Shown here: in pieces, positions 414 through 37,412 of the stretch
Layout: each line of letters starts with the position of its first letter
Numbering within the stretch: the first letter of the stretch is position 1
DNA from: a virus
Lineage: Duplodnaviria; Heunggongvirae; Uroviricota; Caudoviricetes
Virus record (IMG/VR): IMGVR_UViG_2795385844_000002
Span: 1-64,000 of that record
Strand: one strand, 5' to 3'
Length of the DNA: 64,000 bases
Translations under genes and position numbers: made by a program
The notes under the pieces: model-generated
The model's database searches: none
The model's input: the letters and a program-made list of their open reading frames with translations, nothing else
What the model was told of the DNA's origin: nothing

Positions 414-528
414 CCCACATACCAACTAATAGAGAGGCAAGTGAACCCATTGCGTGACTCACGGGAGTAATTCCGTGGGTTGCGTTGTGTGCTCACGACA
501 CACAATCCACACACGGAAGGGATTAGAA

Positions 529-867
529 ATGACACACATTGAGAACGATCGAGACGTCTTGGACGTTCGTGACCTCATCGAGCGCTACGAAGCATTGCGA
601 TCTGAACTCGATGACCTCACCGACCTGCTAGACGAGTTGCGAGGATCAGGGGGGGACCACCAATGGGAGGGCGATTGGTTCCCGGTGACGCTGATTAGAG
701 ACTCGTACTTTCAGGACTACGCGCAAGAGATGGCGGAGGACATCGGGGCAATCAGTGGTGATGCATCGTGGCCTAAGAACCATATCGACTGGGAAAGTGC
801 TGCTCAAGAACTCCAAATTGACTACAGCTCTGTGGAGTTCGACGGAACCACCTACTGGTACCGCTGA
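529..867 (+). CDS. hypothetical protein (113 aa, acidic)
   Basis: ATG at 529 preceded by the conserved ACACGGAAGGGAT upstream motif. Confidence 0.55.
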   Translation: MTHIENDRDVLDVRDLIERYEALRSELDDLTDLLDELRGSGGDHQWEGDWFPVTLIRDSYFQDYAQEMAEDIGAISGDASWPKNHIDWESAAQELQIDYSSVEFDGTTYWYR

Positions 868-1003
868 ATAGTTCTAGATAGGCAAAGTGGGTCGCGAGTC
901 TTTCTCGCGGCCCACTTGGTGCATCTAGCACCAAAACATCCTATGACCTGCATCGATTGGGTGCGTGGTCGGATGGTTTCACCACACGGAAGGGATACAA
1001 ACT

Positions 1004-2044
1004 ATGTCTGCTGAAATCGACAACGCAAACGGTGTCTACATGTACACCGACTCCCGTAATGATGCCTGGCATCAGCTGGGGCAGCAGGTCGGGCGCACTA
1101 TGACAGCTGAGGAGGTTCTCAGCGCGTCGCACCTAGCTGGTTGGGACGTACGGAAGATGCCTATCAACATCCCGCAAGACCCAATCATCAATATGGATGG
1201 GGTTACTACTCCACCTGCGATCGTCGTGCCCGACAGGTATGCAACAGTACGAACCAACCCGATTACCAAGGAGATTGACTACCTCGGGATTGTTGGCGAT
1301 CGGTATGAGCCGGTGCAGAACGAGGCATCATGCGATCTGTTGAACGCCATTGTGGACGAGTCGGGTGCTCATTTCGAGACAGCCGGTGCGCTCTACAACG
1401 GTCGCCAAACGTTCGTAACCATGAAGCTACCCAAGGTGATGGATATCGCTGGTGCGAACGGTGTTACCGACCGTACCGAGTGGTATCTAGCATCGCTCAA
1501 CAGTCACGACGGCTCAAGTTCGGTGCGGGTGATCTTGACGGGTGTACGCATCGTGTGCGCCAATACCCAGCAGTGGGCGTTGAAGAGTGCACGATCATCA
1601 TTCTCTGTGCGCCACACCAAGAATGCTAAGGCGAACATTGCCGAAGCGCGGCGGCTGTTAGGTATCACCTGGCAGTCCATCGACAGTGTGGACGCCGAGT
1701 TCCGGCGCATGGCTGAAGCTGAGATGTCCGTCATCGAAGCGGAGGAGTTTGTTCGTAAGCTGCTCAAGGCTGACGATGTCGAGCCAGGTACGGCTGCGGC
1801 CACTCGTCGTGACAATGTCGCCAACAGCGTTCTCGATCTGTTCACCTCGTCGGAAACCATTACGCCGGTTCGGGGTACGCGCTACGCGTTGTACAACGCA
1901 TTCACTGAGTATCAGGACCACTACGCAGCTGTTCGTGGAGCTGGTGGTCGGGATGCGGATGCGCGCGCACTACGCACCATTCGCGACGCAGAGAGTGAAA
2001 CCTCACTCAAGGCGCGTGCATTCCGTGGCCTACAGCTGGTCTAA
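1004..2044 (+). CDS. DUF932-like phage protein (347 aa)
   Basis: ATG at 1004 after the ACACGGAAGGGATAC motif; product has an NSHDGSS motif that I recall as typical of DUF932. Confidence 0.6.
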   Translation: MSAEIDNANGVYMYTDSRNDAWHQLGQQVGRTMTAEEVLSASHLAGWDVRKMPINIPQDPIINMDGVTTPPAIVVPDRYATVRTNPITKEIDYLGIVGDRYEPVQNEASCDLLNAIVDESGAHFETAGALYNGRQTFVTMKLPKVMDIAGANGVTDRTEWYLASLNSHDGSSSVRVILTGVRIVCANTQQWALKSARSSFSVRHTKNAKANIAEARRLLGITWQSIDSVDAEFRRMAEAEMSVIEAEEFVRKLLKADDVEPGTAAATRRDNVANSVLDLFTSSETITPVRGTRYALYNAFTEYQDHYAAVRGAGGRDADARALRTIRDAESETSLKARAFRGLQLV

Positions 2045-2174
2045 CGGAAATGCATATAGATGCGGGATGGGTGGTCGCGTGGTTTATCTGCGTGGCCATC
2101 TACCTAATCCAGTACAGGAGAGCTAAATAGGGAGGGTGGGACGCGAAGGGGTGCAAGCCTTTTCGCGGCCTGCC

Positions 2175-2192
2175 TGCTGTATTTAGACAGCA
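2175..2192. promoter_or_regulatory. palindromic operator-like site TGCTGTATTTAGACAGCA
   Basis: Perfect 6-bp inverted arms with a 6-bp spacer, immediately upstream of the ACACGGAAGGGATAC/RBS element of the 2211 gene. Confidence 0.45.
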
Positions 2193-2210
2193 CACACGGA
2201 AGGGATACCA

Positions 2211-2453
2211 ATGACAACTATCGCGGCACGACCGTTGAATGTGATCGCGAACGAGATTAAAAGGGATTGGGCCAAACCGTTTTACGGCGCTGCCCCCTAC
2301 TTGGATGCCATGGCTGCGCTCGGTGATATCGATGAGCGCTACGGGTGTTACTCTGCCGAGTTTATCGTTCTAGGCTTCCTGGCCAACTCTGGCAGCTGGC
2401 GCGGTCAAGTGGCTCGCCGGATCAAGAAGGAACTGACAGACATCCTGGGCTGA
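2211..2453 (+). CDS. hypothetical protein (80 aa)
   Basis: ATG at 2211 preceded by the conserved motif and the palindrome TGCTGTATTTAGACAGCA. Confidence 0.55.
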   Translation: MTTIAARPLNVIANEIKRDWAKPFYGAAPYLDAMAALGDIDERYGCYSAEFIVLGFLANSGSWRGQVARRIKKELTDILG

Positions 2454-2473
2454 ACAGGGAGCTGTCGTATGTC

Positions 2474-2491
2474 TGCTGTATTCAGGCAGCA
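2474..2491. promoter_or_regulatory. palindromic operator-like site TGCTGTATTCAGGCAGCA (second copy)
   Basis: Same architecture as 2175..2192; the surrounding 40 bp are conserved between the two copies. Confidence 0.45.
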
Positions 2492-2510
2492 ATACACGGA
2501 AGGGGTACGA

Positions 2511-2717
2511 ATGCATACATCCAGCATTCTGGGGACCAAGGGTGAGGGCGTCATGTGGCAGGGCCCTGGCCGACTGAAGTATGACGAGGCCTATAAGGAA
2601 GCCTCTGACCACGCTCTTTACTGGTTTGGCCGGAAGAGCGGTGAGGTGTCTGTGGACGAAACTAAGATCATCCACAACGGGGTTCACGTTGCAAACATCC
2701 TGGTAGAGAGGGTCTGA
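2511..2717 (+). CDS. hypothetical protein (68 aa)
   Basis: ATG at 2511 preceded by the same motif plus a palindrome; internal start of the 2469..2717 ORF. Confidence 0.55.
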   Translation: MHTSSILGTKGEGVMWQGPGRLKYDEAYKEASDHALYWFGRKSGEVSVDETKIIHNGVHVANILVERV

Positions 2718-2718
2718 G

Positions 2719-2937
2719 GTGGTGGAAAAGGGCGCCAAAGCGCACCTAGTCAATCTGGCTGACGAGTACAGGCCCACCATGGATGGTGAGGTGCTTCATT
2801 CATGGGCCAAGGAGGTCGTCACGGCGATTAGAGAGAGTGATAAGGGGGGGCGCAATGATTCTCGCGGCCCTCCTCATCACTGCTGGAATCACCACTCCTC
2901 CAAGCACTCCCGACTGTGCACGATTCGATGTGTGTAA
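2719..2937 (+). CDS. hypothetical protein; the 3' portion overlaps the next frame and may reflect a frameshift at a G7 tract
   Basis: GTG at 2719 one nt after the previous stop; the C-terminal 25 aa look non-native. Confidence 0.3.
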   Translation: MVEKGAKAHLVNLADEYRPTMDGEVLHSWAKEVVTAIRESDKGGRNDSRGPPHHCWNHHSSKHSRLCTIRCV

Positions 2938-3070
2938 GTACCAGCCGGGATATAACGGGCCCCTCATGCCCACCTGGAACACTCCAGGAACGCATGGGGG
3001 CTGGACAACCAATCAAGTCTTGTGCGACCCGGTCACGTACCAGTGTCGGCAAGTAGTACCAGGGAGTTGA
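2855..3070 (+). CDS. small membrane protein (71 aa, N-terminal TM)
   Basis: ATG at 2855 five nt after a GGGGGGG tract acting as SD; product begins MILAALLITAGITT (hydrophobic). Confidence 0.45.
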   Translation: MILAALLITAGITTPPSTPDCARFDVCKYQPGYNGPLMPTWNTPGTHGGWTTNQVLCDPVTYQCRQVVPGS

Positions 3071-3072
3071 CC

Positions 3073-3165
3073 ATGACTCGGTATTGCATCACTTGTGAGC
3101 GTGAACGGGAAATGAGAGTCGAGAACGGCGAACTGTACTGCTCGGTAGGCACCGGCAATGACTGA
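3073..3165 (+). CDS. small Zn-ribbon-like protein (30 aa, CxxC..C)
   Basis: ATG at 3073; stop overlaps the next start (ATGACTGA). Confidence 0.35.
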   Translation: MTRYCITCEREREMRVENGELYCSVGTGND

Positions 3166-3343
3166 CATCAATGCAGTAATAGAACGGCTAGAGAAAGCCG
3201 AACTTGAACTGGTGGCCATGCACACCGCCGCTAAGTCTAAATCTCTACACCCTGGCGACGTGGATATCGCCGAGGTTCGCAGACTCGGCGGCAAGGTTGA
3301 AGGTGTCCGTCTAGCTCTCTCATACCTAAGGGAAGAACAATGA
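3158..3343 (+). CDS. hypothetical protein (61 aa)
   Basis: ORF track; ATGA-type overlaps at both ends. Confidence 0.5.
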   Translation: MTDINAVIERLEKAELELVAMHTAAKSKSLHPGDVDIAEVRRLGGKVEGVRLALSYLREEQ

Positions 3344-3441
3344 GCACCGAGACCTATGACTTTGATGCCATCTGGGACAGCCTAGACAAGTGCTCTTACT
3401 GCGGGTATCCGACACCATGCACTTGCGAGACATCACTATGA
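3340..3441 (+). CDS. small Cys-rich protein (33 aa)
   Basis: ATG at 3340 overlaps the previous TGA; stop at 3439-3441 overlaps the next ATG. Confidence 0.35.
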   Translation: MSTETYDFDAIWDSLDKCSYCGYPTPCTCETSL

Positions 3442-3695
3442 CCGGGCGTGAGCGTATAGAACAAGCAGCCAAAGAAAATGGGTGGACCCTTGCGCAGCTG
3501 GTCGATGAGACTAGCCGAGTGTATGTACGCGGGCAGCAAGGCGTTTGGGTCTACTACGGCCCACAGGGCACCGCTACAGGCGCAATGTTTGGCACTCATG
3601 AAGTGGCATCCACCGTTACCGGTAAAACCAACGCACCTAAAGACGTGGCCGGTCAGGTTATCGCCTACCTACAGGAACACAAGGAGAATAATTGA
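3438..3695 (+). CDS. hypothetical protein (85 aa)
   Basis: ATG at 3438 (ATGA overlap); internal start of the 3390..3695 ORF. Confidence 0.5.
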   Translation: MTGRERIEQAAKENGWTLAQLVDETSRVYVRGQQGVWVYYGPQGTATGAMFGTHEVASTVTGKTNAPKDVAGQVIAYLQEHKENN

Positions 3696-3913
3696 CCCAG
3701 CAATACCGCATCACGCTAAAGATGGAAGACGGATTCACGAATGAATCCGTGGGGGAAGACCTTTCACAGCTTGTCCGTGACGCCAATGAATTGGCCAAGG
3801 ATCACAACGGTCTAATCTCCCAGGACTACGTCAATAAGATGGGCCTGATCGTCTACACCGCAGAGCAAGCGGGCGCAGCTACGGGATGGGGTTACGTAAC
3901 GCCGGTCATCTAA
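3692..3913 (+). CDS. hypothetical protein (73 aa)
   Basis: TTG start overlapping the previous stop; AAGGAG RBS upstream. Confidence 0.5.
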   Translation: MTQQYRITLKMEDGFTNESVGEDLSQLVRDANELAKDHNGLISQDYVNKMGLIVYTAEQAGAATGWGYVTPVI

Positions 3914-4036
3914 CACACCTGAATACGGAGGAGCCGCAGCGGGAGTCATTCTCGTTGCGGCTCTGCTGTTTTCAGCACTCAGGGCATGGGACTCACGAAC
4001 CCGTGCCCTTTTTCTATGCCCAGAGGAAGGGAACGC

Positions 4037-4504
4037 ATGTTATTGGAAGGTTGGACGTCAACACCGGTTGAATACGAACGGCTCACGCGCGCTGAGGTAG
4101 TCGAGCACGAGCGCTACTGGGCCGAGATGGTTCTCAAGGCGCGAAGCCTACGGCGCAAGTATGACCGCGCGGTATGGCTGAAGGACGTAAAACGGGCTGA
4201 GAGCCTCGCAGAGGCCCTGAGATCCCTTGGCCCATCTATGTTGTACGCCCACGGACGTTGGGAGCGTCACGGGCGCTGGAACCGGTATTACCAAGTACGT
4301 GGTGGCGCTGTACACACCACACTGACATGCCGGTGCATCAACAGGGAGACGGTACTGAACCCGCTCCCCCAATTCGCCGGTAGGTCAAGGAAGTTCATCG
4401 CAGATCGGTACAAGCTGTGCCGACACTGCGGGGACACCCACACGGGCGACATTCCTGCTGATCGAGCTTATCGGTCGTTCAAGGCCTACCTGCTCATTAC
4501 CTAA
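4037..4504 (+). CDS. hypothetical protein (155 aa)
   Basis: ATG at 4037 after a GAGGAAGGGA RBS. Confidence 0.5.
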   Translation: MLLEGWTSTPVEYERLTRAEVVEHERYWAEMVLKARSLRRKYDRAVWLKDVKRAESLAEALRSLGPSMLYAHGRWERHGRWNRYYQVRGGAVHTTLTCRCINRETVLNPLPQFAGRSRKFIADRYKLCRHCGDTHTGDIPADRAYRSFKAYLLIT

Positions 4505-4573
4505 AACGCGGTCTGACCTGCATTAAGTGGGTCGGGTTTACGTTCTGAATACACGAAGGAAGGGATACCCAAA

Positions 4574-4654
4574 ATGTTCGAAGAGGAAGAGATCGATTAC
4601 GGCCCCGAGTGGTGGGGTGACTACCTCCAGGAGTCGGGGAGGTTGGCCCAGTGA
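4574..4654 (+). CDS. tiny acidic peptide (26 aa)
   Basis: ATG at 4574 after the ACACGAAGGAAGGGATAC motif; stop overlaps the next GTG. Confidence 0.3.
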   Translation: MFEEEEIDYGPEWWGDYLQESGRLAQ

Positions 4655-4845
4655 AGTGCTCAATCAGCTACTGCTGGGAGGACTCCGTGTCCAAAGAGAT
4701 GTGCGCACACCACTACCAGCAGAACTACAAGCGGGACACGCGAGGCGATCGACGCAACCGGTCGCGTCTCGCTAAGCGTCTGGAGGCTAAGGGTTTCAAG
4801 GTCTCTCAGGAGTACCTGGAGCAGCGATTGGCTGGCCTACGGTGA
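4651..4845 (+). CDS. small Cys/His-containing protein (64 aa)
   Basis: GTG start (GTGA overlap); ORF track. Confidence 0.45.
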   Translation: MKCSISYCWEDSVSKEMCAHHYQQNYKRDTRGDRRNRSRLAKRLEAKGFKVSQEYLEQRLAGLR

Positions 4846-5117
4846 GCGCGCCAGTCACTCGGGATGTGCGCTACTGGTACGAGCTTGGTAGACGCACGCT
4901 ACTTCCCGGGACAGAGGTGTCCATTAGGGGCAAGACTGGCCGGTTTCGGTTCCAGTACTGGCGGCACACCAGCTCTGGCATGGATGAACTCACATTCGTC
5001 GGTGGGCCGCTACATGGACAGGGAGAGCGTTACGTCTCGGTCTACCCCGAGCGTGTTACACGGGTGCATCGAATCAACAAGACACTGACCAACATTCAGA
5101 AGGAGAAGCGCAAGTGA
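4842..5117 (+). CDS. hypothetical protein (91 aa)
   Basis: GTG start overlapping the previous stop; ORF track. Confidence 0.5.
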   Translation: MSAPVTRDVRYWYELGRRTLLPGTEVSIRGKTGRFRFQYWRHTSSGMDELTFVGGPLHGQGERYVSVYPERVTRVHRINKTLTNIQKEKRK

Positions 5118-5287
5118 GCGCCACGGTACTGGAGGCGCGGTGGCTCACGAAAGGCCACTACCTACCCGTGTATGCGGAATCGGTGGCTGAGGTGGTTCAG
5201 CTGGAGGACTTTGTCGTCGTGACGTTCGCCAGCGACCTGCCAGTGAAGGTCTTCCACGAAACCGACAAGGTCGAGGTGTGGGAATGA
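5114..5287 (+). CDS. hypothetical protein (57 aa)
   Basis: GTG at 5114 (GTGA overlap); stop TGA at 5285-5287 overlaps the next ATG. Confidence 0.4.
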   Translation: MSATVLEARWLTKGHYLPVYAESVAEVVQLEDFVVVTFASDLPVKVFHETDKVEVWE

Positions 5288-5478
5288 GGTACTGCCCCAC
5301 TCCCGACAAGAAGTCATATGTCAACAAAGGCGTAGCACTTCGAGCGGTTACCAGGATCCGCAAGAACAGTAGGACGAGGCACAACAAGAAGCGCTATATA
5401 CCGGTGGAGCCGTACGTCTGCTCGTGCGGCGAATACCACCTTTGCACCGCAGACAAGGCGAAGTTCAAACGCAAGTAG
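5284..5478 (+). CDS. small basic Cys-containing protein (64 aa)
   Basis: ATG at 5284 (ATGA overlap). Confidence 0.45.
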   Translation: MRYCPTPDKKSYVNKGVALRAVTRIRKNSRTRHNKKRYIPVEPYVCSCGEYHLCTADKAKFKRK

Positions 5479-5588
5479 AGAAGAGGGTCTGCCCACATGG
5501 GTTGGCCCTTTTCTTTTACCCAAATCGTTAGCATACCTAACCAAATACCCACCCAATCATTCAGTCTCCTGCGGTATCATCTGTGACT
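5479..5588. promoter_or_regulatory. candidate attP / integrase promoter region
   Basis: 110-bp non-coding gap immediately upstream of the serine integrase, with an imperfect inverted repeat around GCCCACATGGGTTGGCCC. Confidence 0.3.
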
Positions 5589-6983
5589 ATGCGAGCTGCC
5601 GTCTACCTGCGCCAATCAATGGATAGAGAAGGTGACGGACTAGCCGTCGAACGTCAGCGCGAAGACTGCCTGAGGATCTGCCGTGAGCGCGGCTGGGAAC
5701 CCACCCAGTACGTCGATAACGACACTAGCGCCAGCAAGGGCCGTCGACCGTCGTATGAGCGCATGCTCGCTGATATACGCAGTGGCCGCATTGATGCCGT
5801 AGTGGTGTGGGATCTTGACCGACTGCATCGTCAGCCCAAGGAGCTCGAGCAGTTCATTGAGCTGGCCGACGAGAAGCGGCTAGCGCTGGCCACCGTAGGC
5901 GGGGATGCCGATCTCTCCACCGATAACGGTCGGCTGTTCGCGCGCATCAAAGGCGCGGTGGCTAGGGCTGAGGTGGAGCGAAAGTCGGCAAGGCAGAAGC
6001 GCGCATTTCTCCAGATGGCCCAATCTGGTAAAGGCTGGGGCCCGCGCGCATTCGGATACAACGGTGACCATGACAAGCCGAAGATCATCCTCAAGGAGGC
6101 TGAGGCCCTGAGGCGTGGCTACAAGATGCTCCTGTCGGGCGAAACCCTCTATTCAGTTGCAAAACACTGGAATGACGCTGGCCTGAAGACTCCACGGGGG
6201 AACCTGTTCAACGGAACCACGGTGCGCCGGATTCTTCAGAACCCACGCTACGCAGCTGTCCGCACCTACCACGATGAAGTTGTGGGAGAGGGTAAGTGGC
6301 CCGCGATCATTGACGAGACCACCTGGCAGGCTGTGAATGCCCTCCTTAGCGACCCATCACGCCATCAGCCGCGCCAGGTTCGTAAGTACGTCCTCGGCGG
6401 TCTACTCACCTGCAGCGAGTGTGGCCACAAGATGTCTGTGGGCGTACAGCACCGGAAAGAGGGGAATGTCCCCATCTATCGGTGCAAGCACGTCAGCTGC
6501 GGCAAGGTCACCCGACGTGTTGAGCGTATGGATGAATGGGTGAGGGAGATTGTCCTGCGCAGGATGTCGAGTCGGCATTGGGTTCCCGGGAATCAGGACA
6601 ACCGGGAAAGGGCCCTCCAGCTACGGGAAGAGCTGGACACAATCAAGCAGCGAATGGACTCCCTCGCAATCGATTTCGCTGACGGAGAACTCACCGCAAG
6701 CCAGATGCGTATCGCCAATGAGCGAATGCAGGCGAAGCTTGATGACATTGAGGACAAGCTCCGTCGAACCAATGTGCGGCCACTCCCCGATGGGATTCTC
6801 ACCGCGAAGGACCGGGGCAAGTTTTACGACGACCAGATGTCTCTGGATGCGAAACGAGCCCTCATCGAGGCCTTATGCAACTCGATTGTCGTGCATCCCC
6901 TCAACCTCAAGGGCCGCAGTGCTTCCCAGGCTCCGCTCGGGCATAACATCGATGTCCACTGGCACAAGCCCAGTAATGGCTGA
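5589..6983 (+). CDS. int: large serine recombinase (serine integrase)
   Basis: N-terminal resolvase catalytic domain (YLRQS...R), recombinase domain and a Cys-rich zinc-ribbon region; 464 aa. Confidence 0.9.
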   Translation: MRAAVYLRQSMDREGDGLAVERQREDCLRICRERGWEPTQYVDNDTSASKGRRPSYERMLADIRSGRIDAVVVWDLDRLHRQPKELEQFIELADEKRLALATVGGDADLSTDNGRLFARIKGAVARAEVERKSARQKRAFLQMAQSGKGWGPRAFGYNGDHDKPKIILKEAEALRRGYKMLLSGETLYSVAKHWNDAGLKTPRGNLFNGTTVRRILQNPRYAAVRTYHDEVVGEGKWPAIIDETTWQAVNALLSDPSRHQPRQVRKYVLGGLLTCSECGHKMSVGVQHRKEGNVPIYRCKHVSCGKVTRRVERMDEWVREIVLRRMSSRHWVPGNQDNRERALQLREELDTIKQRMDSLAIDFADGELTASQMRIANERMQAKLDDIEDKLRRTNVRPLPDGILTAKDRGKFYDDQMSLDAKRALIEALCNSIVVHPLNLKGRSASQAPLGHNIDVHWHKPSNG

Positions 6984-7070
6984 GATCCGCGACAACTGCG
7001 ACTGAGTGAGTGGCGGTGCATCGTCCAGGATCCTGGCGAAGATCGCCTCGTCTTCGTCTGACCATTTCAT
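6873..7070 (-). CDS. hypothetical ORF antisense to the integrase 3' end (possible RDF candidate)
   Basis: 65-aa ORF with an ATGA overlap to the downstream gene, but it overlaps int by 111 nt on the opposite strand. Confidence 0.2.
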   Translation of the reverse strand: MKWSDEDEAIFARILDDAPPLTQSQLSRISAITGLVPVDIDVMPERSLGSTAALEVEGMHDNRVA

Positions 7071-7324
7071 CGAGGTAGTGCCCCATCCACTCGCTTCATG
7101 ACTTCAGCGACGAGCGCCCATGAGCCATCCGAATATCGGTGGTGCAGTGTGCCTGACGCGCTGGCCTTCGGGATCTTCGTACCGTCCAGTAGCGTTGCCT
7201 CACGCTGCTCCGCATCCCATCGGTAGACGTATGCACTGCCACGGTCGGGGCTGAACATCTCCTGACGGGTGATGAATACTTCACCAATCACTGTGCTGTT
7301 AACCATAATTGGAATGATCAGCAT
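7067..7324 (-). CDS. hypothetical protein (85 aa)
   Basis: ORF track; overlapping stop/start with neighbours. Confidence 0.5.
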   Translation of the reverse strand: MLIIPIMVNSTVIGEVFITRQEMFSPDRGSAYVYRWDAEQREATLLDGTKIPKASASGTLHHRYSDGSWALVAEVMKRVDGALPR

Positions 7325-10684: not shown

Positions 10685-10764
10685 AGACGGTCACCGGGTC
10701 GTAGTCGCATGCCGAATCGCGGTACCCCTTGCCTGGGATCACCGGGTACTTCTCAAACCAGAAC

Positions 10765-11948: not shown

Positions 11949-11988
11949 ATACCAATGCTATTGAGCGATTCTGGGTTCATGTGGGTAC

Positions 11989-14659: not shown

Positions 14660-14698
14660 TTTTCACCAGTAGCTGCGGAACCTGGTTTCCCTTACACG

Positions 14699-14772
14699 CC
14701 GACTCTCCCCGAATCGAACGGGGGCGCACCGGGCTTCAACCGGTCGCTCTTACCTAACTGAGCTAAGAGTCG
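14699..14772 (-). tRNA. tRNA-Phe (GAA)
   Basis: Acceptor CGACTCT/AGAGTCG; D GCTC/GAGC; anticodon arm ACCGG-TTGAAGC-CCGGT; T-arm CCCCG-TTCGATT-CGGGG. Confidence 0.85.
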
Positions 14773-15066
14773 ATTGTTAGAGGCTGAGAGTACACCCGCT
14801 ATCGAGAACCTTTCGCAGCATTATGGATTCGCTGCTTCTCCAGGCCATCCCTGACCTAGTTCTCACGCCTGGTCCGTTACCGTGAACCACTCGTTATGCC
14901 GAAAGCTACTCTGCGGCTTTCCCTTCGCGATGAGATGGCCGTCTCACTGCTGCAGTACTTGCCTACAAACCGCACTCACCTTGCGGGACTATTGTGCGGC
15001 CCAGATTCCCGAGGGTCTGGGATTAAGGCGCTTTTGCTCCTCGGCAGGGGAAGGACTTTTGCTTTT

Positions 15067-15138
15067 AATTGACGACGGGACTTGAACCCGCACATCCAGT
15101 TTCCAATAACTGGTGACCTACCGTTGGTCTACGTCATT
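15067..15138 (-). tRNA. tRNA with 8-nt anticodon loop TATTGGAA (Gln-TTG or Pro-TGG-like; possible quadruplet or frameshift decoder)
   Basis: Good D (GACC/GGTC) and T arms; anticodon arm CCAGT-TATTGGAA-ACTGG is 18 nt instead of the usual 17. Confidence 0.5.
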
Positions 15139-15592
15139 CTCACAGCGGAGAATGATTTGACTAGAGACGTGCTTCCCCATGAAGTTCCGAACCCTTTTGG
15201 GGCACAGAATGCTTCACGCCTCTCGTGCTTTCGCCTGGCGGGGCTAATTACACTCTCTCTCAACCACATTGCGAGCCGTCGCCCGACGCGAGATCGATCA
15301 TGGAACACGCCCTTGCTTGCGAGGCTCGGACTCAGTTCCTTCCGTTCCACAGGGCGCTCGTTCAATAGCCTTTTCACACGCACGTACGTGATGGTGTCCT
15401 CAGCACTTTGCCGTTGGACGGGGCGTAACTCGCAACCTGGCAGCCATCTCTGACTGCTCAAGGATTGGATTGCATGGATTGCCCTTGCGGGTGGTGGGTT
15501 GTCACCCCACCTTTCACCACCTTGCGGTGGCTTATGGGCCATACCCCGAATGTCTTAACTATATCTCCCACAACAGAGTTCGTGTGGGTGAG

Positions 15593-15839: not shown

Positions 15840-15921
15840 ATCGCCCCAGAATTCATGACGCAGCCTGGCGCACACTGCGGACAGCCAACTCGTGGCAGGT
15901 ACCTACCGGTTGACCCTAAAG

Positions 15922-15993
15922 CTGAAGACCCTGGATTCGAACCAAGAACTGCGACGTTCAGAGCGTCGTGTGTTGCCGTTACACCAATCTTCA
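15922..15993 (-). tRNA. tRNA-Gln (CTG)
   Basis: D GTGT/ACAC; anticodon arm CGACG-CTCTGAA-CGTCG; T-arm CTTGG-TTCGAAT-CCAGG. Confidence 0.75.
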
Positions 15994-16072
15994 ATGCTGA
16001 GACTGGCCTTGCGGGCGGGGGAACGTTTCTGCTTGCCGCAAGCCTTCAGTTCGTTCCACACCAGTCTCATTG

Positions 16073-16150
16073 TCTCGCCGTCAGGAGTCGAACCTGCACA
16101 CCCGAAGGAGCAGATTTACAGTCTGCGTTGATCGCCTATTCGCGACGAGA
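16073..16150 (-). tRNA. tRNA-Tyr (GTA), type II
   Basis: Anticodon arm GCAGA-CTGTAAA-TCTGC; variable arm TCCTTCGGGTGT; acceptor CTCGTCG/CGGCGAG. Confidence 0.6.
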
Positions 16151-16201
16151 TTGGAGCCAGTGCTCGGCTTCTCGCCGATTCGCATGCACACACTGACATG
16201 G

Positions 16202-16274
16202 CTGGCTTGGAAGGATTCGAACCTACACCTCGCGAGTTAACAGCTCGCTGCTCTACCAATTGAGCTACAGGCCA
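16202..16274 (-). tRNA. tRNA-Asn (GTT)
   Basis: Canonical TAGCTCAATTGGTAGAGC D-arm; anticodon arm GCGAG-CTGTTAA-CTCGC; T-arm GTAGG-TTCGAAT-CCTTC. Confidence 0.8.
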
Positions 16275-16393
16275 AGGGCGAGGGTGGCCAGTGTCAGCGC
16301 GCTTTCTGACCTGTGCGACCCTCTTGCCCGTCCTGCTTAGAGATGAGACGGAGCCGAAAACACCCGTACGGTCATCGTACGTGATGACGAACG

Positions 16394-16748: not shown

Positions 16749-17102
16749 TGGAGCTGCCCGGAATTGAACCGGGATGTTACGTGACTTGTCACAGTCTTCT
16801 ACGTGCGTAGTCCACCGATTGGGTCGGTTGGGGTGGACGCCTGTCCGAATCGAGACCTCAGACTCTCGACCGATCTTCCAGCACAGTTTGTCGCCTGAGA
16901 GCTGGTCATTGCGAGTTCCCCGTATTCGCGACGGTGGATTGGTACACGGAACGGGTAAACCGTTGTACCCCACCGGACTACGCAGCTAGGGCGTAGTCGG
17001 ACTGAGCAGAAGCTGCAGTTATTGTGGTTGCACTGTTACGGGCGTTGCATGCCCGGCACGCTTCTCAGTAAGTTGACACGCAATCGAATACCTGTCAGCC
17101 CC
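16749..17102 (-). ncRNA. ssrA: tmRNA (ssrA), about 354 nt, tag peptide AASAQSDYALAA
   Basis: 5' GGGGCUGACAGGUAUUCGAUUG (compare E. coli GGGGCUGAUUCUGGAUUCGAC); 3' CCCGG-UUCAAUU-CCGGG-CAGCUCCA with a G3:U70 and A73 Ala-identity acceptor; internal ORF GCA GCU UCU GCU CAG UCC GAC UAC GCC CUA GCU GCG UAG. Confidence 0.85.
16978..17016 (-). other. tmRNA tag-peptide reading frame (AASAQSDYALAA, stop UAG)
   Basis: Preceded by AAUAACU (compare E. coli AAUAGUC); ends in the classic ...YALAA degron. Confidence 0.75.
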
Positions 17103-22622: not shown

Positions 22623-23047
22623 TTCTTCACCCACACTGTGATGGTCTTCTCCTGTGAGACAACCTCTTCGGTGGGTCCGTCGTAGTAGCCACCATTGAAG
22701 GAGGCATACCACCCATCACGACGGAAGTAGCGAACCTCGCCATTATCGTCGGTAATCTTGAAGACAAACCAGTACTGGTCGCCTTGACCTTCGCCTCCGA
22801 AGGTGTCCTCAAGCTCGATACGCCCGAAGCCTTCGAAGTACTTGTAATCAATCTCCGACTCGGGGATCGGATCGAATTTGCGGGTGTCAGGGTTCCACCG
22901 CTCCTTGTTCACCCCGATGTATTCCTCGAACTCGTGCCAGCCGGTGATGTGCTCGGTCTTCGGCTCAGTCTCTTTGTACGGGGTGTACGTCACATCCCAG
23001 CCGGTATCCTGTACCAGCTCTTCGATATCCTCGACGGTGTAGCTCAC
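22619..23047 (-). CDS. MSYT-family paralog 1 (142 aa)
   Basis: Shares the GGEG.GDQYWFVFK..GEVRYFRRDGWYASFNGGYYDGPT core with the two adjacent genes. Confidence 0.6.
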   Translation of the reverse strand: MSYTVEDIEELVQDTGWDVTYTPYKETEPKTEHITGWHEFEEYIGVNKERWNPDTRKFDPIPESEIDYKYFEGFGRIELEDTFGGEGQGDQYWFVFKITDDNGEVRYFRRDGWYASFNGGYYDGPTEEVVSQEKTITVWVKK

Positions 23048-23379
23048 TTGATCTCCTCATATACGTTCATAACCTTCTGCGTGACCCTTACTTCTCTCGT
23101 CGGGCCGTCATAGTCACCGCCAACGAAGGATGCGTAGTAGCCACTGCGTCGGAAGTACCGCTCAGTCCCATCAAGGCCGGTGACCTTGAAGACCATCCAA
23201 AGGTCTTCACCCTTTCCTTCGCCGCCGTACTGATCGATAAAGGTCGCTCGCCCGATACCAGGGATGACTACCTCTTCATCCCCGTACTCGAGCAGGTCTT
23301 CGAACTCGAACCAGCTACCGGACCACTCGTTTTCTTCGTCTTCGATCGCCTTGTTGAGTGCCTTGATTGTGTAGCTCAT
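23044..23379 (-). CDS. MSYT-family paralog 2 (111 aa)
   Basis: Tandem paralog; ATGA overlaps. Confidence 0.6.
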   Translation of the reverse strand: MSYTIKALNKAIEDEENEWSGSWFEFEDLLEYGDEEVVIPGIGRATFIDQYGGEGKGEDLWMVFKVTGLDGTERYFRRSGYYASFVGGDYDGPTREVRVTQKVMNVYEEIK

Positions 23380-25592: not shown

Positions 25593-26234
25593 CTACAGAC
25601 CCAGTTCGCGGCATACCAAGCTAAAGAGCTGGCTGAAGAAGTTCGATGACTTCCCAATGCGTGCAGCCAGATCCGTGGTTGGAACGGAAGGGTTGGCAAT
25701 GATCGCGTTCAACACATCCAGGCATGCTGCGCGACTCTGATGCCCAACACGACGATGGAATACAGCGAAGTCTGTGCGAGCCGTCACCAGCTCGTGAGCC
25801 GCACGTGCCTTTTCCAGGCGGTTGCGGTAGCGGGTATCCACACCGTTGTGAGCGTGGAGAGCTTCGCCAGTCAGGGCCTCTACCGGCATGGTGATCTGCT
25901 TGATGTCAGGCCACTCGGGGCGCATCGCTGCGCGTTCAGCTGGAGTGGTCCCACCCCAGATGCCGAATTCCTCGCCATTATCCAAAGCCCAGGTACGGCA
26001 CATGTCCAGAACGGGGCAGCGTGAGCACGTGGCCTTTGCGCGTTGCTCGGCGTAGGCCACCATTTCGGTAGCCAACTCCTGAGTGACTCCATCCTCGACC
26101 AGCTCTTCCACGGTGAGAAAGTGCGACTCCTGGTCGTCAGGATCGCATACAGCTTTGCTGCGCCAATCAAGATCCAGGTCGCTGGCCGTAGGTGGGCGCT
26201 CGATCATAGCGGTCATTTGGTTGTATCCCTTCAA
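25593..26234 (-). CDS. whiB: WhiB-family transcription factor with C-terminal extension
   Basis: Four-Cys WhiB pattern AVCDPDD...ATCSRCPVLDMC. Confidence 0.7.
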   Translation of the reverse strand: MKGYNQMTAMIERPPTASDLDLDWRSKAVCDPDDQESHFLTVEELVEDGVTQELATEMVAYAEQRAKATCSRCPVLDMCRTWALDNGEEFGIWGGTTPAERAAMRPEWPDIKQITMPVEALTGEALHAHNGVDTRYRNRLEKARAAHELVTARTDFAVFHRRVGHQSRAACLDVLNAIIANPSVPTTDLAARIGKSSNFFSQLFSLVCRELGL

Positions 26235-29371: not shown

Positions 29372-29392
29372 ATGCTCTCAATTCGTTCGGGA

Positions 29393-33638: not shown

Positions 33639-33679
33639 GGGTCGCTGGTACCGGTCCCGGGGGATTGCCCAGTCAGTAA

Positions 33680-34303: not shown

Positions 34304-34370
34304 CAGTCAGTAGCTCCTATGTAGAGAAAAACGAACAGAACGACTCCCCATGGCCACCATGGGATTTGAA

Positions 34371-35053: not shown

Positions 35054-35346
35054 CTATTGTCACGAGCCTTGTCTAGATCCCATGGTTCAGCACCCATATT
35101 CCGTAGCTCACGACACACCCTGGTGCGCTGAATCTTGAGTGTCAGCACGGCGTCAGCGTCAGATTCCCTGTGCCGCTCACGAATTGACTCATCAAGCAGG
35201 AAGAGGTCGAGAAGCTTCTCGTTCCTACTCTCCAGAAACTTGGCTGCGGATTCACTCACGCATACCAGGCTGAACCCATACACCGACTTGTTCGTGTGGG
35301 TATGAGCGCCGAGGGACACGACCCCCTCGGCGGCGCGACTGCGCAC
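35017..35346 (-). CDS. hypothetical protein adjacent to the divergent regulatory region
   Basis: ORF track; start uncertain (GTG at 35259 possible). Confidence 0.35.
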   Translation of the reverse strand: MRSRAAEGVVSLGAHTHTNKSVYGFSLVCVSESAAKFLESRNEKLLDLFLLDESIRERHRESDADAVLTLKIQRTRVCRELRNMGAEPWDLDKARDNSWMVRQQTASCG

Positions 35347-35742
35347 TCAGGTCGACAGGAAGGGATACTACTTTGCTCGGCCTCCCTGAGTCTCGAAACC
35401 CATTCTACTGATCCTGGCTTAGATGGAATCGCACAACGGAAATAATGAACCATTTCCGCAGGTCAGGATCTTTCACCCACATGAACCCCTGCGCCATGTC
35501 GTAGCCTCCTAAAAGGAGAGTGCGAACGCAGTGAGCACGCACCTCCCGCTAGGGAGGCCCACGCCGGATTGGCGTGGCTGCCCGAAGGGCATCAACCTCC
35601 AGACCGCAGCGTCCCCACTTGAGCATGGTTCTCGGTGAAATGAATAACCCTTGCAGTCAAGGTATCTCACGTTGAGGTGGAGGTAGTCGTTACGTAAGTC
35701 GGGAACGGTACTAGAGCGCGTGCGCGCGAGCCCGCTACCCAC
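35347..35742. promoter_or_regulatory. divergent intergenic regulatory region containing two copies of the ACCCACATGAACCC motif
   Basis: About 400 bp non-coding between minus- and plus-strand gene blocks; motif copies at 35474..35482 and 35737..35745. Confidence 0.5.
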
Positions 35743-36234
35743 ATGAACCCGAAATGCGCTGCAAGACTTTGTGACATGGGAATTGAAGTACAGAAGGCTC
35801 GCGGGAATGAGATCATCTACCGCACTCCGAACGGCCCTATCCATATCAAGGCTTGGGACGACAACGCGGGAATCTGGTGCCTATCGCTCAATGCTCCCGA
35901 CCGATACCCGAACGGATCGCGCAAGCAAACTACCCGCACTCTGAACATCGGGCCCCAGAGCCACGCGGATATTGAGGCGTTCGTCCAGGCTTTCGCCGTG
36001 ATCTACGAAGCCGCGGGCAGATCGAAAGCCCCTCGCAAGCTCGGCGGTCTGGACTGCGATGAAGCGCGTGATGGCGCGGTGTGGGCTGACTCGGATGAGG
36101 GATTCCCTTTTCACTACCGATTCCGTGGTGGTAACTGGGAATACCTCGCTCTCGCTGGGGAGAGTAGCTGGAAGGTACTGGACGACCCGTACTCGCTTAT
36201 CGGCTACGGCCCCTATGTCGAGGTGATCGCGTGA
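35743..36234 (+). CDS. hypothetical protein (163 aa) starting MNPK; C-terminal domain paralogous to the product of 8612..9448
   Basis: ATG embedded in the conserved motif; C-terminal LDCDEARDGAVW...YRFRGGNWEYL...PYVEVI. Confidence 0.6.
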   Translation: MNPKCAARLCDMGIEVQKARGNEIIYRTPNGPIHIKAWDDNAGIWCLSLNAPDRYPNGSRKQTTRTLNIGPQSHADIEAFVQAFAVIYEAAGRSKAPRKLGGLDCDEARDGAVWADSDEGFPFHYRFRGGNWEYLALAGESSWKVLDDPYSLIGYGPYVEVIA

Positions 36235-37034
36235 GCCATCACTCCCCTCGCCACAAGGAGATCGCCGCGAAAGGACTAATCCTCCTCACTGAGGTTGGAT
36301 CCGGCCTCCACGGTGTGACCCTGGAGGGCACTGACGACCATGACGAGATGGGTATCTGCATTCCCCCACCGGAATGCGTTCTGGGCCTGGAGAAGTTCGA
36401 GCAGTACGCCGATCGTTGGCGCTCAGACGGGACACGCATTCCTGACGGAGTGCGCAGTCAGCATGGCGATACCGATCACACGACGTATGCATTGAACAAG
36501 TGGGCTCGCCTTGCAGCGCAGGGGAACCCGACCGTTCTACTCCCGTTGTTCGCACCCAAGGGAAAGATCTATAAGCAGACGCTGGAGGGCACTCAACTTC
36601 TTAGGGCCCGGAGTCTGTTCCTCTCGAGGGACGCTGGGTGGCGGTTCCACGGTTATCTGAAAGCGCAGCGTGCGCGCATGATTGGCGAAAAGGGTGTGTC
36701 GAAACACAAGAATCGCCGCGAGCTGGTGGAGCAGTTAGGTTTCGACACGAAGATGGCCTACCACGCTCTGCGCCTAGCCGTCCAGGGTTCAGAACTGATG
36801 ACTCACCAAACCATCACAGTTCCCATGGCTGCATCGAACGTGAATTGGCTTCGGTACGTGCGCAATGGCGGCGCATCACTCGAATACGTGACACGGTGGC
36901 TGGATCAACTTACCGCTGCGCTTGAAATCGACATCGCGGCGTCGAGCCTCCCCGATCACGTTGACCACGACCAACTGAACGACTTCCTAATTGGCCTGCA
37001 CTACGGCTACTGGAAACGCACCGGTCAACTCTAA
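36231..37034 (+). CDS. Pol-beta superfamily nucleotidyltransferase
   Basis: GSGLHG-x7-DDHD NTase core motif; ATGA overlap with the upstream gene. Confidence 0.65.
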   Translation: MSHHSPRHKEIAAKGLILLTEVGSGLHGVTLEGTDDHDEMGICIPPPECVLGLEKFEQYADRWRSDGTRIPDGVRSQHGDTDHTTYALNKWARLAAQGNPTVLLPLFAPKGKIYKQTLEGTQLLRARSLFLSRDAGWRFHGYLKAQRARMIGEKGVSKHKNRRELVEQLGFDTKMAYHALRLAVQGSELMTHQTITVPMAASNVNWLRYVRNGGASLEYVTRWLDQLTAALEIDIAASSLPDHVDHDQLNDFLIGLHYGYWKRTGQL

Positions 37035-37052
37035 ACACGAAGGGATACGCAT

Positions 37053-37412
37053 ATGAGCAACAAGCGCAAGGACAGCATCGGAGTTCTCTCCAAGACTCAG
37101 GGAATGGTCAAGCTCGCGAAGCCGGGACCACCTGTCGCGGTTGGCACTCGCGTCACTGGGCACAACCTGGGCGCAGTGACGCACATTGTCTCGATCGAAG
37201 CTGAGCGCGTAGGTGAGAAGCGCGCCATCGGCATCACTTTCAATGAGGATGGCAGCCTTCACGCTGTGACCGTCCACTCCGCCGATGGTCCGCTCGCGGA
37301 ATTCAAGCCAGGCACCCATCTGAGCATTGGTGATAGTGGTGACCTTGTCGTGTTCGATGAGGAGCACTTCTACGACCCCGTCAGCGGTGCTGAGGTGGTT
37401 GAGGTTCACTAA
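37053..37412 (+). CDS. hypothetical protein (119 aa)
   Basis: ATG after the ACACGAAGGGATAC upstream motif. Confidence 0.55.
   Translation: MSNKRKDSIGVLSKTQGMVKLAKPGPPVAVGTRVTGHNLGAVTHIVSIEAERVGEKRAIGITFNEDGSLHAVTVHSADGPLAEFKPGTHLSIGDSGDLVVFDEEHFYDPVSGAEVVEVH

Follow-up and report, generated by a model that had tools for sequence, protein, structure and literature searches.

Motif copies and the genes behind them

The window, a 64,000-nt stretch of DNA, belongs to a cluster MabI (cluster M-like) prophage of Mycobacterium abscessus, and its motif-bearing end is 99% identical to prophi86-1, a cluster MabI prophage; cluster MabI is grouped with cluster M. Six copies of a ACACGGAAGGGATAC-type motif, all on the + strand and each 2–5 nt 5′ of an ATG, lie where an earlier note on this DNA had placed them, but the motif is a 15-mer rather than the 16-mer described there. 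The last three copies listed here were absent from that note.

511–525 (+): copy 1, ACACGGAAGGGATTA, two mismatches at the 3′ end, 3 nt 5′ of ATG 529
984–998 (+): copy 2, exact ACACGGAAGGGATAC, 5 nt 5′ of ATG 1004
2194–2208 (+): copy 3, exact ACACGGAAGGGATAC, 2 nt 5′ of ATG 2211
2494–2508 (+): copy 4, ACACGGAAGGGGTAC, 2 nt 5′ of ATG 2511
4551–4568 (+): copy 5, ACACGAAGGAAGGGATAC, 3-nt insertion variant, 5 nt 5′ of ATG 4574
37035–37048 (+): copy 6, ACACGAAGGGATAC, 1-nt deletion variant, 4 nt 5′ of ATG 37053
4022–4036 (+): degenerate copy, AGAGGAAGGGAACGC, directly 5′ of ATG 4037 (gene 4037–4504), core retained, ACAC and TAC flanks lost
26223–26232 (−): partial copy without the ACAC flank, GAAGGGATAC, 6 nt 5′ of the ATG of a WhiB-family gene (ortholog of prophi86-1 gene 88)
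35360–35368: orphan copy, AAGGGATAC, no ORF behind it

The gene after copy 1 (529–867) is ArdA-like and corresponds to prophi86-1 gene 164, with a Pfam ArdA score of 24 bits, under the cut-off of 27; the gene after copy 2 (1004–2044) encodes a DUF932 protein (Pfam, 191 bits). Copies 3 and 4 precede genes at 2211–2453 and 2511–2717, the second of which starts at an upstream ATG (2469) in the prophi86-1 annotation and at the motif-adjacent start in prophiT49-2 (gene 161). Behind copy 5 lies a 26-aa ORF (4574–4654), its stop overlapping the GTG of the next gene, that is unannotated in prophi86-1 and annotated as prophiT49-2 gene 151; motif-adjacent starts were preferred by later annotators. Copy 6, directly 3′ of the stop codon of a nucleotidyltransferase gene, precedes the ortholog of prophi86-1 gene 64 (37053–37412). 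The phage also encodes an ERF-family recombinase and two WhiB-family transcription factors.

When we scanned the window for the 15-mer with up to three mismatches, we found 6 matches compared to 1.21 expected, a count reached in 0 of 100 shuffles, and the 12-mer ACACGGAAGGGA with up to one mismatch gave 4 matches compared to 0.36 expected (0 of 100 shuffles). The three-mismatch scan was partly blind to copies 5 and 6 because both are indel variants: it recovered only the core of copy 5 (4554–4568, 3 mismatches) and missed copy 6, and a pattern allowing indels recovered both. A match at 16944, antisense to tmRNA, is probably a chance occurrence.

A motif family shared with cluster M phages

Right-arm genes of other MabI prophages are likewise preceded by the motif family, with the consensus CACACGGAAGGGATAC, and so are those of the cluster M phages Bongo, Rey, Estes, and Aziz, with CACACGGAGAAGGGAA; compared to the cluster M form, the MabI purine tract is 2 nt shorter and is followed by a clade-specific TAC. 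The 14 sources together supplied 105 distinct copies, all in the sense of the gene that follows; that gene starts with ATG in 103 cases and GTG in 2. From the TAC/TTA end to the ATG, copies 1–6 in the window have 3, 5, 2, 2, 5, and 4 nt, a spacing that had been called fixed; the actual rule is a distance of 5–8 nt from AAGGGA to the start codon, and the AAGGGR-to-start distance is mostly within this range among the 105 copies.

The earlier note held that loss of the flanks in related phages would count against its reading. We searched for them, and the ACAC flank is kept in all MabI and cluster M genomes examined, before orthologous as well as non-orthologous genes. ACAC carries 1.2–1.4 bits per position in both clades, which have no detectable nucleotide similarity to each other outside the motif. 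The proposal that both flanks are conserved beyond a ribosome-binding site thus held for ACAC, which is conserved more than rRNA pairing explains, but failed for the 3′ TAC, which is confined to the MabI clade and has GGGAA as its counterpart in cluster M phages. ACAC and AAGGGA lie a variable distance apart (a variation of 1–5 purines), so the motif is not one rigid 15-mer. The note's link to early genes is an assumption; what is observed is that copies are confined to leftward operons, where they sit ahead of the first gene to follow an intergenic gap. In prophi86-1, all 10 of 10 copies lie ahead of leftward genes, with no copy at a rightward gene (hypergeometric p ~5e-6, from an approximate tally of ~46 leftward genes among 144 CDS), and the motif core is absent from structural genes. 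Position, strand, copy number, association with ATG, leftward-operon restriction, and conservation across diverged phages are all direct observations.

Cluster M mycobacteriophages carry conserved repeats CR3 and CR4 (Pope et al. 2014, J Virol 88:2461; summarised in PMC7953290). Compared indirectly, by way of that summary, the motif appears to match CR3, and this kind of element is therefore already known. Among the insertions said there to carry CR3 are Estes gene 172 and Aziz gene 158, and we found that both have ACACGGAGAAGGGAA just 5′ of the ATG and share nothing else upstream. Further likenesses are the shared phage lineage (Vilmaviridae, Mclasvirinae; MabI grouped with cluster M), ACAC...AAGGGA before ATG in the four cluster M phages, a location between genes of a leftward right-arm operon adjoining a serine integrase, and stem-loops upstream. 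The elements studied here differ in host, M. abscessus, and in lying within an integrated prophage; our literature search turned up no mention of these repeats in MabI prophages. Membership of a published repeat class, upstream hairpins, the leftward-operon and first-gene restriction, and mosaic junctions did not figure in the earlier note.

Upstream hairpins and the purine core

The motif forms the 3′ portion of a larger leader unit that consists, from 5′ to 3′, of a GC-rich stem-loop, a small hairpin whose loop is conserved, CACAC, the purine core, 5–8 nt, and the ATG. The structures upstream of the copies in the window are as follows.

460–477 (+): stem-loop 5′ of the small hairpin of copy 1
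484–506 (+): small hairpin of copy 1, GTTGTGTG-CTCACGA-CACACAAT, ending 4 nt 5′ of the copy
887–915 (+): GC-rich stem-loop of copy 2
916–934 (+): hairpin of copy 2, TTGGTGC-ATCTA-GCACCAA (covariance-model match 917–938, E 0.027)
945–970 (+): hairpin of copy 2, GACCTGCA...TGCGTGGTC
2142–2167 (+): GC-rich stem-loop of copy 3
2175–2192 (+): hairpin of copy 3, TGCTGT-ATTTAG-ACAGCA, ending 1 nt 5′ of the copy (covariance-model match 2173–2199, E 1.5e-7)
2474–2491 (+): hairpin of copy 4, TGCTGT-ATTCAG-GCAGCA, ending 2 nt 5′ of the copy (covariance-model match 2472–2499, E 4.7e-8)
3930–3964 (+): terminator-like stem-loop 5′ of the degenerate copy
3964–3977 (+): hairpin 5′ of the degenerate copy, TGCTG-TTTT-CAGCA (covariance model, E 0.16)
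3981–4009 (+): stem-loop with a T run 5′ of the degenerate copy
4515–4533 (+): hairpin of copy 5, GACCTGC-ATTAA-GTGGGTC, of the same repeat type as 945–970

Copy 6 has no intergenic hairpin. The association with upstream hairpins is observed directly: a hairpin of at least 5 bp ends no more than 8 nt upstream of 87 of the 105 copies, compared to 31 of 105 in shuffled sequences (maximum 44) and 31% at random genomic positions. Stems within single genomes differ by paired changes (TGCTG/CAGCA, TGGTG/CACCA, TTGTGTG/CACACAA, and TTGCGTA/TACGCAA), although a count of such covariation is partly circular because the sequences were picked for having a hairpin. Counts of G.U compared to A.C pairs did not discriminate which strand forms the hairpin. 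The region from CACAC to AUG is predicted to be unpaired at 0.55–0.77, compared to 0.1–0.2 for the region upstream, and the predicted accessibility of the core gains slightly from its natural context (0.54 vs 0.48 with shuffled upstream sequence). No sigma-70-like promoter was found in 1–7200, where 4.0 were expected.

The suggestion that the core can act as a Shine-Dalgarno site is supported by its distance from the start codon and its complementarity to the 3′ end of mycobacterial 16S rRNA, the last 8 nt of which we take to be 3′-UCUUUCCU-5′. With this assumed end, the core–rRNA duplex is worth −8.8 to −9.8 kcal/mol, compared to −7.4 for the genome median and −8.7 for GGAGG. The core is not an optimal Shine-Dalgarno sequence, and it lacks the canonical tetramers AGGA, GGAG, and GAGG.

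A putative translation-initiation leader and its alternatives

We favor, with confidence no more than middling, the reading that the repeat is the MabI-prophage version of cluster M CR3 and acts as a modular mRNA leader for translation initiation. As judged from sequence, ACACGGAAGGGATAC would be a ribosome-binding site within a longer conserved leader that has a further role. One such unit would precede the first cistron of every gene cassette in the leftward operons, with the purine core (GGAAGGGA in the window and GGAGAAGGGA in cluster M) serving as the Shine-Dalgarno site by pairing with the last 8 nt of 16S rRNA, two G.U pairs included, and with the CACAC(G) tract presumably single-stranded between the small hairpin and the core. 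ACAC would lie beyond the rRNA 3′ end and would therefore be unreadable by the ribosome's anti-Shine-Dalgarno sequence. ACAC and the hairpin are probably read by another component, perhaps a nuclease, or an RNA-binding factor encoded by phage or host, which would place a class of genes under common control. Reading at the RNA level is suggested by the variable gap from ACAC to AAGGGA, since such variation would be hard to reconcile with a rigid DNA-binding site. As a side effect, the repeated module may serve as an exchange point for gene cassettes between related prophages.

Elements in phage early-mRNA leaders that act on the ribosome-binding site include the T4 RegA/RegB targets, the SP82 polypurine 5′ stabiliser, and the T7 early RNase III sites. 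They too are short RNA signals common to early or host-takeover genes, placed at or beside the Shine-Dalgarno sequence and combined with hairpins at cistron boundaries; their sequences are unrelated to the motif, and the analogy would be one of mechanism only. The cluster K SAS, whose function was called ill-defined as late as 2024–25, is likewise asymmetric and in one orientation only, with 11–19 copies per genome in the non-structural arm, located 3–7 nt ahead of start codons that are strongly biased toward ATG and before genes with large upstream gaps; it has a Shine-Dalgarno-like core plus conserved positions unable to pair with 16S rRNA, and a second conserved inverted-repeat element upstream. 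It differs in sequence and belongs to an unrelated phage cluster, and the window contains about as many matches to its consensus GGGATAGGAGCCC as chance predicts (2, with 1.5 expected).

Where homology between related prophages breaks off, it does so precisely at the motif, a coincidence with mosaic junctions that is directly observed and that bears on an alternative we consider unlikely: an ordinary strong ribosome-binding site at the edge of a mobile cassette. Expression would then depend on the purine core alone, ACAC, TAC, and the hairpins would persist through recombinational copying and exchange of intergenic modules, and the repeat would link right-arm genes as they are shuffled. The 90-nt stretch that precedes copy 1 is found in 7 of 7 related prophages, with the alignment stopping exactly at ACAC, and the ArdA-like gene is present in none of the seven; in prophiT49-2 and L031 a gap of 541–701 bp lies between the upstream module of copy 2 and the DUF932 gene, which in L008 is joined to a different module. 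Identical leaders are common to non-homologous genes, and the phage-encoded ERF-family recombinase also suits this account. However, neutral hitchhiking would not preserve ACAC and AAGGGA in more than 100 MabI and cluster M copies while hairpin stems, spacers, and neighbouring genes diverged beyond nucleotide recognition, 12–15 bp is short for homologous exchange, and the leftward-operon restriction and near-exclusive ATG are left unexplained. Recombinational copying of whole modules could account for part of the flank conservation.

It is similarly doubtful that the repeat is an element of RNA processing or stability. On that view, cleavage of the polycistronic leftward transcripts would fall within the single-stranded CACAC tract; mycobacterial RNase E, which cuts on the 5′ side of cytidines, is one nuclease that could do this. 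Upstream hairpins would shield the 3′ end of the upstream message, and ribosomes on the polypurine tract would shield the new 5′ end from RNase J, by analogy with the SP82 stabiliser and the T7 early-operon RNase III sites. Stem-loops, a C-rich unpaired tract, and a purine tract at every cassette boundary are consistent with this scheme, as are the many terminator-like hairpins inside one operon that has no promoter-like sites. The T7 early operon also begins with an anti-restriction-like gene, as does the operon here. Against such cutting, CACAC fits the reported RN|CNU preference at the +1 C only, copy 6 is without an intergenic hairpin, and processing alone leaves the fixed ATG distance and the clade-specific TAC flank unexplained.

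A DNA-level control site seems quite improbable, whether an asymmetric operator of an immunity repressor, like the cluster A stoperators, or a non-canonical promoter or transcription start for a phage-modified RNA polymerase, with every transcript beginning at ACAC. In favor of such a site, the motif occurs in many asymmetric, intergenic copies that are always oriented with transcription, cluster MabI has no assigned repressor, two WhiB-family factors are phage-encoded, and sigma-70-like promoters are missing from the region though terminator-like hairpins flank each cassette. The stoperators, which are binding sites of L5 gp71, are also short, asymmetric, many-copied, oriented with transcription, and mostly intergenic (PMC3203893, PMC4351075), but they are repressor DNA sites that are not locked to start codons or Shine-Dalgarno complementarity, whereas the MabI motif has variable internal spacing and no known repressor. 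The cluster K ESAS, which adjoins SAS, was found to contain promoters (PMC11373665); it carries SigA-like −35/−10 hexamers, a promoter type not seen here, and its arms do not support RNA pairing, whereas the stems here co-vary. The tight 5–8 nt coupling to ATG and the anti-Shine-Dalgarno complementarity point instead to translation, variable spacing inside the motif is a poor fit to a DNA-binding site, co-varying hairpin arms within a single genome are not needed by one DNA-binding protein, and the loops do not match a TANNNT −10 element. Finally, chance recurrence of a purine-rich 15-mer, for which the single match at 16944 and isolated single-copy matches in unrelated contigs might speak, is refuted by the shuffles and by the location of all copies on one strand, before ATGs, recurring in every related genome.

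Motif copies, their genomic setting and cassette exchange

All six motif copies in the window lie on the + strand, each 2–5 nt before an ATG, where the earlier note had placed them. The copies and related sites are:

Copy 1, 511, + strand: 3' end TTA, not TAC
Copy 2, 984, + strand: exact 15-mer
Copy 3, 2194, + strand: exact 15-mer
Copy 4, 2494, + strand: G in place of A
Copy 5, 4551–4568, + strand: 3-nt purine insertion
Copy 6, 37035–37048, + strand: 1-nt deletion
Weaker relative AGAGGAAGGGAACGC: directly before ATG 4037
Weaker relative GAAGGGATAC, 26223–26232, − strand: 6 nt before the ATG of a WhiB-family gene
Orphan GACAGGAAGGGATAC, 35353–35368, including AAGGGATAC at 35360: no gene behind it

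When up to three mismatches were allowed, the 15-mer gave 6 matches in the window compared to 1.21 expected, and none of 100 shuffles reached 6; the 12-mer ACACGGAAGGGA, with up to one mismatch, gave 4 matches compared to 0.36 expected. A match with up to three mismatches at 16944, antisense to the tmRNA, is probably a chance occurrence. The AAGGGATAC sequence at 35360 has no credible ORF downstream and was left uncounted as a motif copy. Copies 1–5 lie in a leftward operon between the integrase and attR (window 511–4568, corresponding to prophi86-1 genes 154–164), where the genes behind them are an ArdA-like gene, a DUF932 gene, two small genes, and a 26-aa ORF; copy 6 stands in a different leftward block, ahead of the gene 64 ortholog. 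The orphan falls within a 396-bp intergenic region (35347–35742) from which the leftward block of genes and, on the other side, the rightward early operon diverge; because the MabI repressor has not been identified so far, this stretch is a candidate for the main control or immunity region.

Window bases 183–6000 are 99% identical to Mycobacterium phage prophi86-1, 97% identical to prophiT49-2, and 85% identical to prophiGD54-2; over its full length, the window runs collinear with prophi86-1 in reverse complement. These relatives are cluster MabI prophages of M. abscessus (Vilmaviridae, Mclasvirinae) and are placed with the cluster M mycobacteriophages. Cluster M phages and their relatives are characterized by a size of about 80 kb, arrayed tRNAs, a tmRNA, and a serine integrase located some 13 kb short of the right end; of these hallmarks, the window carries a tRNA array (17 tRNAs in the window), a tmRNA, and a serine integrase adjoining the motif region.

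The motif is found solely in front of genes that come first after an intergenic gap, and genes that overlap the preceding stop codon (translationally coupled genes) lack it. The complete prophi86-1 genome has 10 copies, and every one leads a leftward gene (those of the right arm, gene 64, and gene 29, the head of a leftward block beside terminase); none stands before a rightward early, tRNA-region, or structural gene. Thus, the motif is a class mark and not simply the best ribosome-binding site of the phage.

The 90 nt upstream of copy 1 are present in seven of seven related prophages at 93–100% identity, with alignments that stop at the base before ACAC, and the ArdA-like gene behind this copy is present in none of the seven. 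Some relatives have the module upstream of copy 2 next to the DUF932 gene; in prophiT49-2 and in the related prophage locus L031, an additional gene that bears the motif lies between the two, and in another such locus, L008, the DUF932 gene is joined to a different upstream module. These breaks in homology at copies 1 and 2 show an exchange of cassettes with crossovers at the motif.

The ArdA-like anti-restriction gene sits beside the DUF932 gene at window 529–2044; it scores 24 bits in Pfam, below the cut-off, and 4.7e-7 against a PHROG anti-restriction family, and the DUF932 match scores 191 bits. Paired genes of this kind are characteristic of conjugative-plasmid leading regions. In a clinically relevant M. 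abscessus prophage, the motif would mark the genes that adjoin attR, the anti-restriction-like one among them, as a single co-controlled set.

Conservation in MabI and cluster M phages and relation to CR3

The motif leader is present in 8 copies in 12 kb of prophiT49-2 and in 10 copies in 12 kb of prophiGD54-2, and many of the genes that it leads in these prophages are unrelated to the motif-led genes of the window. Right-arm genes of the cluster M phages Bongo and Rey carry CACACGGAGAAGGGAA 4–9 nt before the ATG (13 copies in Bongo and 11 in Rey), and the cluster M phages Estes and Aziz have leaders of the same type. IMG/VR scans with two 14–15-mers found multi-copy loci only in ~80-kb contigs and one 28-kb contig, whose leaders agree with the ones in MabI prophages or cluster M phages; single matches scattered over many other contigs look like chance. 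Among the matches listed in a bacterial-genome scan for the 15-mer, hits were single and scattered in unrelated taxa (Streptomyces, Bacteroidales, archaea, and others), as chance would give.

Pooling of these sequences and removal of duplicates left 105 distinct copies, all on the gene-sense strand, with ATG as the start codon in 103 and GTG in 2; the spacing from AAGGGR to the start is 5–8 nt in 94 of them. The sequence logos read CACACGGAAGGGATAC for MabI and CACACGGAGAAGGGAA for cluster M, with ACAC and AAGGGA common to both and TAC specific to MabI. The earlier note had proposed that both flanks are conserved beyond the needs of a ribosome-binding site, a claim open to the objection that related phages might lack them. 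The 5' flank, ACAC, is kept in both clades, whereas the 3' flank, TAC, is kept only in MabI; the objection thus fails for the 5' flank and half succeeds for the 3' flank. The MabI variant gives the cluster M family a second consensus, diverged from the first, and so reveals where selection acts: on ACAC and AAGGGA, and, outside MabI, not on TAC.

The conserved repeats of cluster M phages are named CR1–CR4, after Pope et al. (PMC7953290), and Estes gene 172 and Aziz gene 158 are inserted genes accompanied by CR3 copies (PMC7953290). The only element shared by the regions upstream of these two genes is ACACGGAGAAGGGAA before the ATG, and on the basis of these sequences and that report we would equate the motif family with CR3. 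Like CR3, motif copies are interspersed among many genes of the leftward-transcribed region at the far right, the same arm as in Bongo and Rey, and the stem-loops that accompany CR3 upstream of the repeat are also found in the window. Compared to the cluster M sequence ACACGGAGAAGGGAA, the window version has a 2-nt shorter purine run and the TAC flank. Our literature search found no statement that CR repeats occur in MabI prophages. The element is probably a member of a published repeat class, to which the window adds a new clade variant.

The closest named analog elsewhere is the start-associated sequence (SAS) of cluster K phages, which follows the same logic with a different sequence: like SAS, the motif is asymmetric, occurs in one orientation a few nucleotides before starts, prefers ATG, and stands, in the non-structural arm, before genes that have a large gap upstream. 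Membership in the SAS family itself was rejected, as the 13-bp GGGATAGGAGCCC with up to two mismatches gave 2 matches compared to 1.52 expected in the window, neither at a motif site. A known RNA family was likewise rejected, with no match at E ≤ 1 to Rfam covariance models in window 1–5200. The role of the cluster K SAS is still described as 'ill-defined', and mycobacteriophage start-associated repeats (cluster K SAS, cluster M CR3 and CR4) have been known for over a decade without a demonstrated function.

Leader architecture and proposed mechanism

Right-arm intergenic regions of the window run from a stop codon through one or more GC-rich stem-loops, some of them terminator-like, to a small hairpin, 0–8 nt of C/A-rich sequence, and ACACGG, followed by the purine core, 5–8 nt, and the ATG. 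A hairpin of at least 5 bp ending no more than 8 nt from ACAC accompanies 87 of the 105 pooled copies, compared to 31 of 105 in shuffled sequence (maximum 44 in 200 shuffles) and 31% of random genomic positions. The element is part of a larger unit that contains a hairpin and is limited to leftward operons. The commonest hairpin has the form yCTGsTs, a loop of the AyTyAG type, and sAsCA, with one stem pair that is C-G in 19 and G-C in 18 of 40 aligned examples; other copies have quite different stems (TTGTGTG/CACACAA or TTGCGTA/TACGCAA), at times in one genome. This covariation is suggestive support for the hairpin, in sequences pre-chosen for having one. Counts of G·U versus A·C pairs settle neither strand as the one that forms the hairpin and are partly circular, as G·U was allowed during hairpin picking. 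A search of the 64-kb window with a covariance model of the hairpin plus ACACGG gave just four sites, each on the + strand and within the first 4 kb. The predicted accessibility of the Shine-Dalgarno (SD) site is only marginally above that with shuffled upstream sequence, and the idea of an 'insulator' is weakly supported.

We take the 3' end of mycobacterial 16S rRNA to be ...GAUCACCUCCUUUCU-3'. With this assumed tail, GGAAGGGA and AGAAGGGA could form 8 consecutive pairs with the terminal UCCUUUCU, two of them G·U. The duplex energy is −8.8 kcal/mol for the core and −9.8 to −10.1 kcal/mol with flanks, compared to −8.7 kcal/mol for GGAGG and a genome median of −7.4 kcal/mol; the core contains none of the canonical AGGA, GGAG, and GAGG tetramers. 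Complementarity to the assumed 16S tail and a spacing of 5–8 nt, within the about 5–10 nt before the start typical of SD sites, suggest that the core functions in this way, and it is predicted to be a good SD site, not the best of the genome. The assumed tail is consistent with the one used in PMC3203893. ACAC(G) lies past the rRNA 3' end, and anti-SD pairing thus cannot account for its conservation, an argument also made for the cluster K SAS.

With moderate confidence, we favor a reading in which the motif is an mRNA-level initiation module: the core would serve as the SD site, the hairpin and CACAC flank would be read by another component, and the cassettes of the leftward operons would so obtain common control or processing. 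Variable internal spacing, paired stem changes, the predicted unpaired tract from CACAC to AUG, and the lack of sigma-70-like promoters in window 1–7200 argue for action at the RNA level, and we infer that a reader of the ACAC flank exists. The observation in the earlier note is real, and its interpretation as a shared translational enhancer or RNA–protein recognition site is broadly reasonable. A tentative and more doubtful proposal is that hairpin, CACAC, and core form the signal of a dedicated post-transcriptional regulon, bound by a factor common to cluster M and MabI. This factor would be a protein, or else a host nuclease or ribosome variant that is recruited; about 10–14 leftward-operon messages, including those of the anti-restriction-like and DUF932 genes, would be switched on, off, or processed together; and the clade-specific 3' flank (TAC versus AA) would have co-evolved with the factor. 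If true, such a regulon would give a defined mechanism for mycobacteriophage start-associated sequences, unexplained since 2011.

The initiation module and the other explanations do not fully exclude one another. A plain ribosome-binding site on a recombination linker would suit both the SD-like core and the homology breaks at copies 1 and 2, leaves the ACAC(G) flank and the restriction to leftward genes unaccounted for, and is unlikely. An RNase E-type processing and stability site would fit the behavior of mycobacterial RNase E, which cuts single-stranded RNA 5' of C and prefers intergenic regions; we consider it improbable. A DNA operator or non-canonical promoter, set against the features that point to RNA, is quite improbable, also for an operator of the cluster A stoperator type, which the immunity repressor would bind as double-stranded DNA to block transcription, and chance recurrence, set against the expected and shuffled match counts, is vanishingly so.

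Two further candidates were tried and rejected. For a SigA-type promoter in each intergenic region, no sigma-70-like site was found in window 1–7200, and the hairpin loops are unfit for TANNNT. For an antisense or trans-acting RNA, the window contains no complement of at least 10 nt to the motif besides the opposite strand of the copies themselves, with isolated 8–9-mers at chance level.

Gene starts, additional repeats and an RNA in the tRNA array

The start of prophi86-1 gene 161 is annotated at window 2469, compared to the start at 2511 next to the motif, and should probably be placed 42 nt further downstream; the 26-aa ORF (window 4574–4654) is absent from the prophi86-1 annotation, and the prophiT49-2 annotation handles both correctly. 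The annotated starts of Bongo gene 149 (locus L004 around 36379) and Rey gene 168 (locus L005 around 35377) also lie upstream of a motif-plus-ATG. The motif likely exposes annotation errors in these records; as a reliable guide to true start codons and small genes in MabI prophages, it sets several GenBank annotations right. With MabI-derived phages as candidates for engineering and therapy, a portable, strong, defined leader could also be a useful expression tool.

A second family of start-associated repeats (...CCCCTACTACATACCAAGGATAGAAACA-ATG, CCAACTAAGGATAGAAACA in the window) lies at the attR-distal end of the right arm, where it takes the place of the ACAC...AAGGGA leader before the last few genes. 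It is found at window 191–209 (ATG 210) and, in degenerate form, 422–440, upstream of prophi86-1 genes 165/166 (L001), and upstream of prophiT49-2 genes 167–169 (L006). A further conserved hairpin repeat, (C)TGACCWGCATCGATTGGGTKSCTGGTC, lies upstream of certain motif copies in genomes of MabI as well as cluster M (window 945–970 and 4515–4533; locus L007 at 11875; prophi86-1 locus L001 at 80665; upstream of Bongo gene 134 and Rey gene 154) and may be another published CR element. In Estes (L283) and Aziz (L284), the regions upstream of genes 167 and 168 contain truncated copies of the motif (ACACGGAGAAG..., GGAGAAGGGCACCTAGG...) that lead directly into a stem-loop, with no ORF, and resemble leftovers of deleted cassettes.

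A full-length GOLLD RNA (Rfam RF02032; 196 bits, E 9e-54) lies inside the tRNA array at window 14781–15224 on the − strand. The GenBank records examined annotate the nested tRNA only, or nothing, and no GOLLD RNA, and a literature search for GOLLD and mycobacteriophage found nothing relevant. The nested tRNA of the window is at 15067–15138, and the RNA is kept in relatives, at 15879–16292 in Bongo (L004), 14685–15108 in Rey (L005), and 22659–23102 in prophi86-1 (L003).
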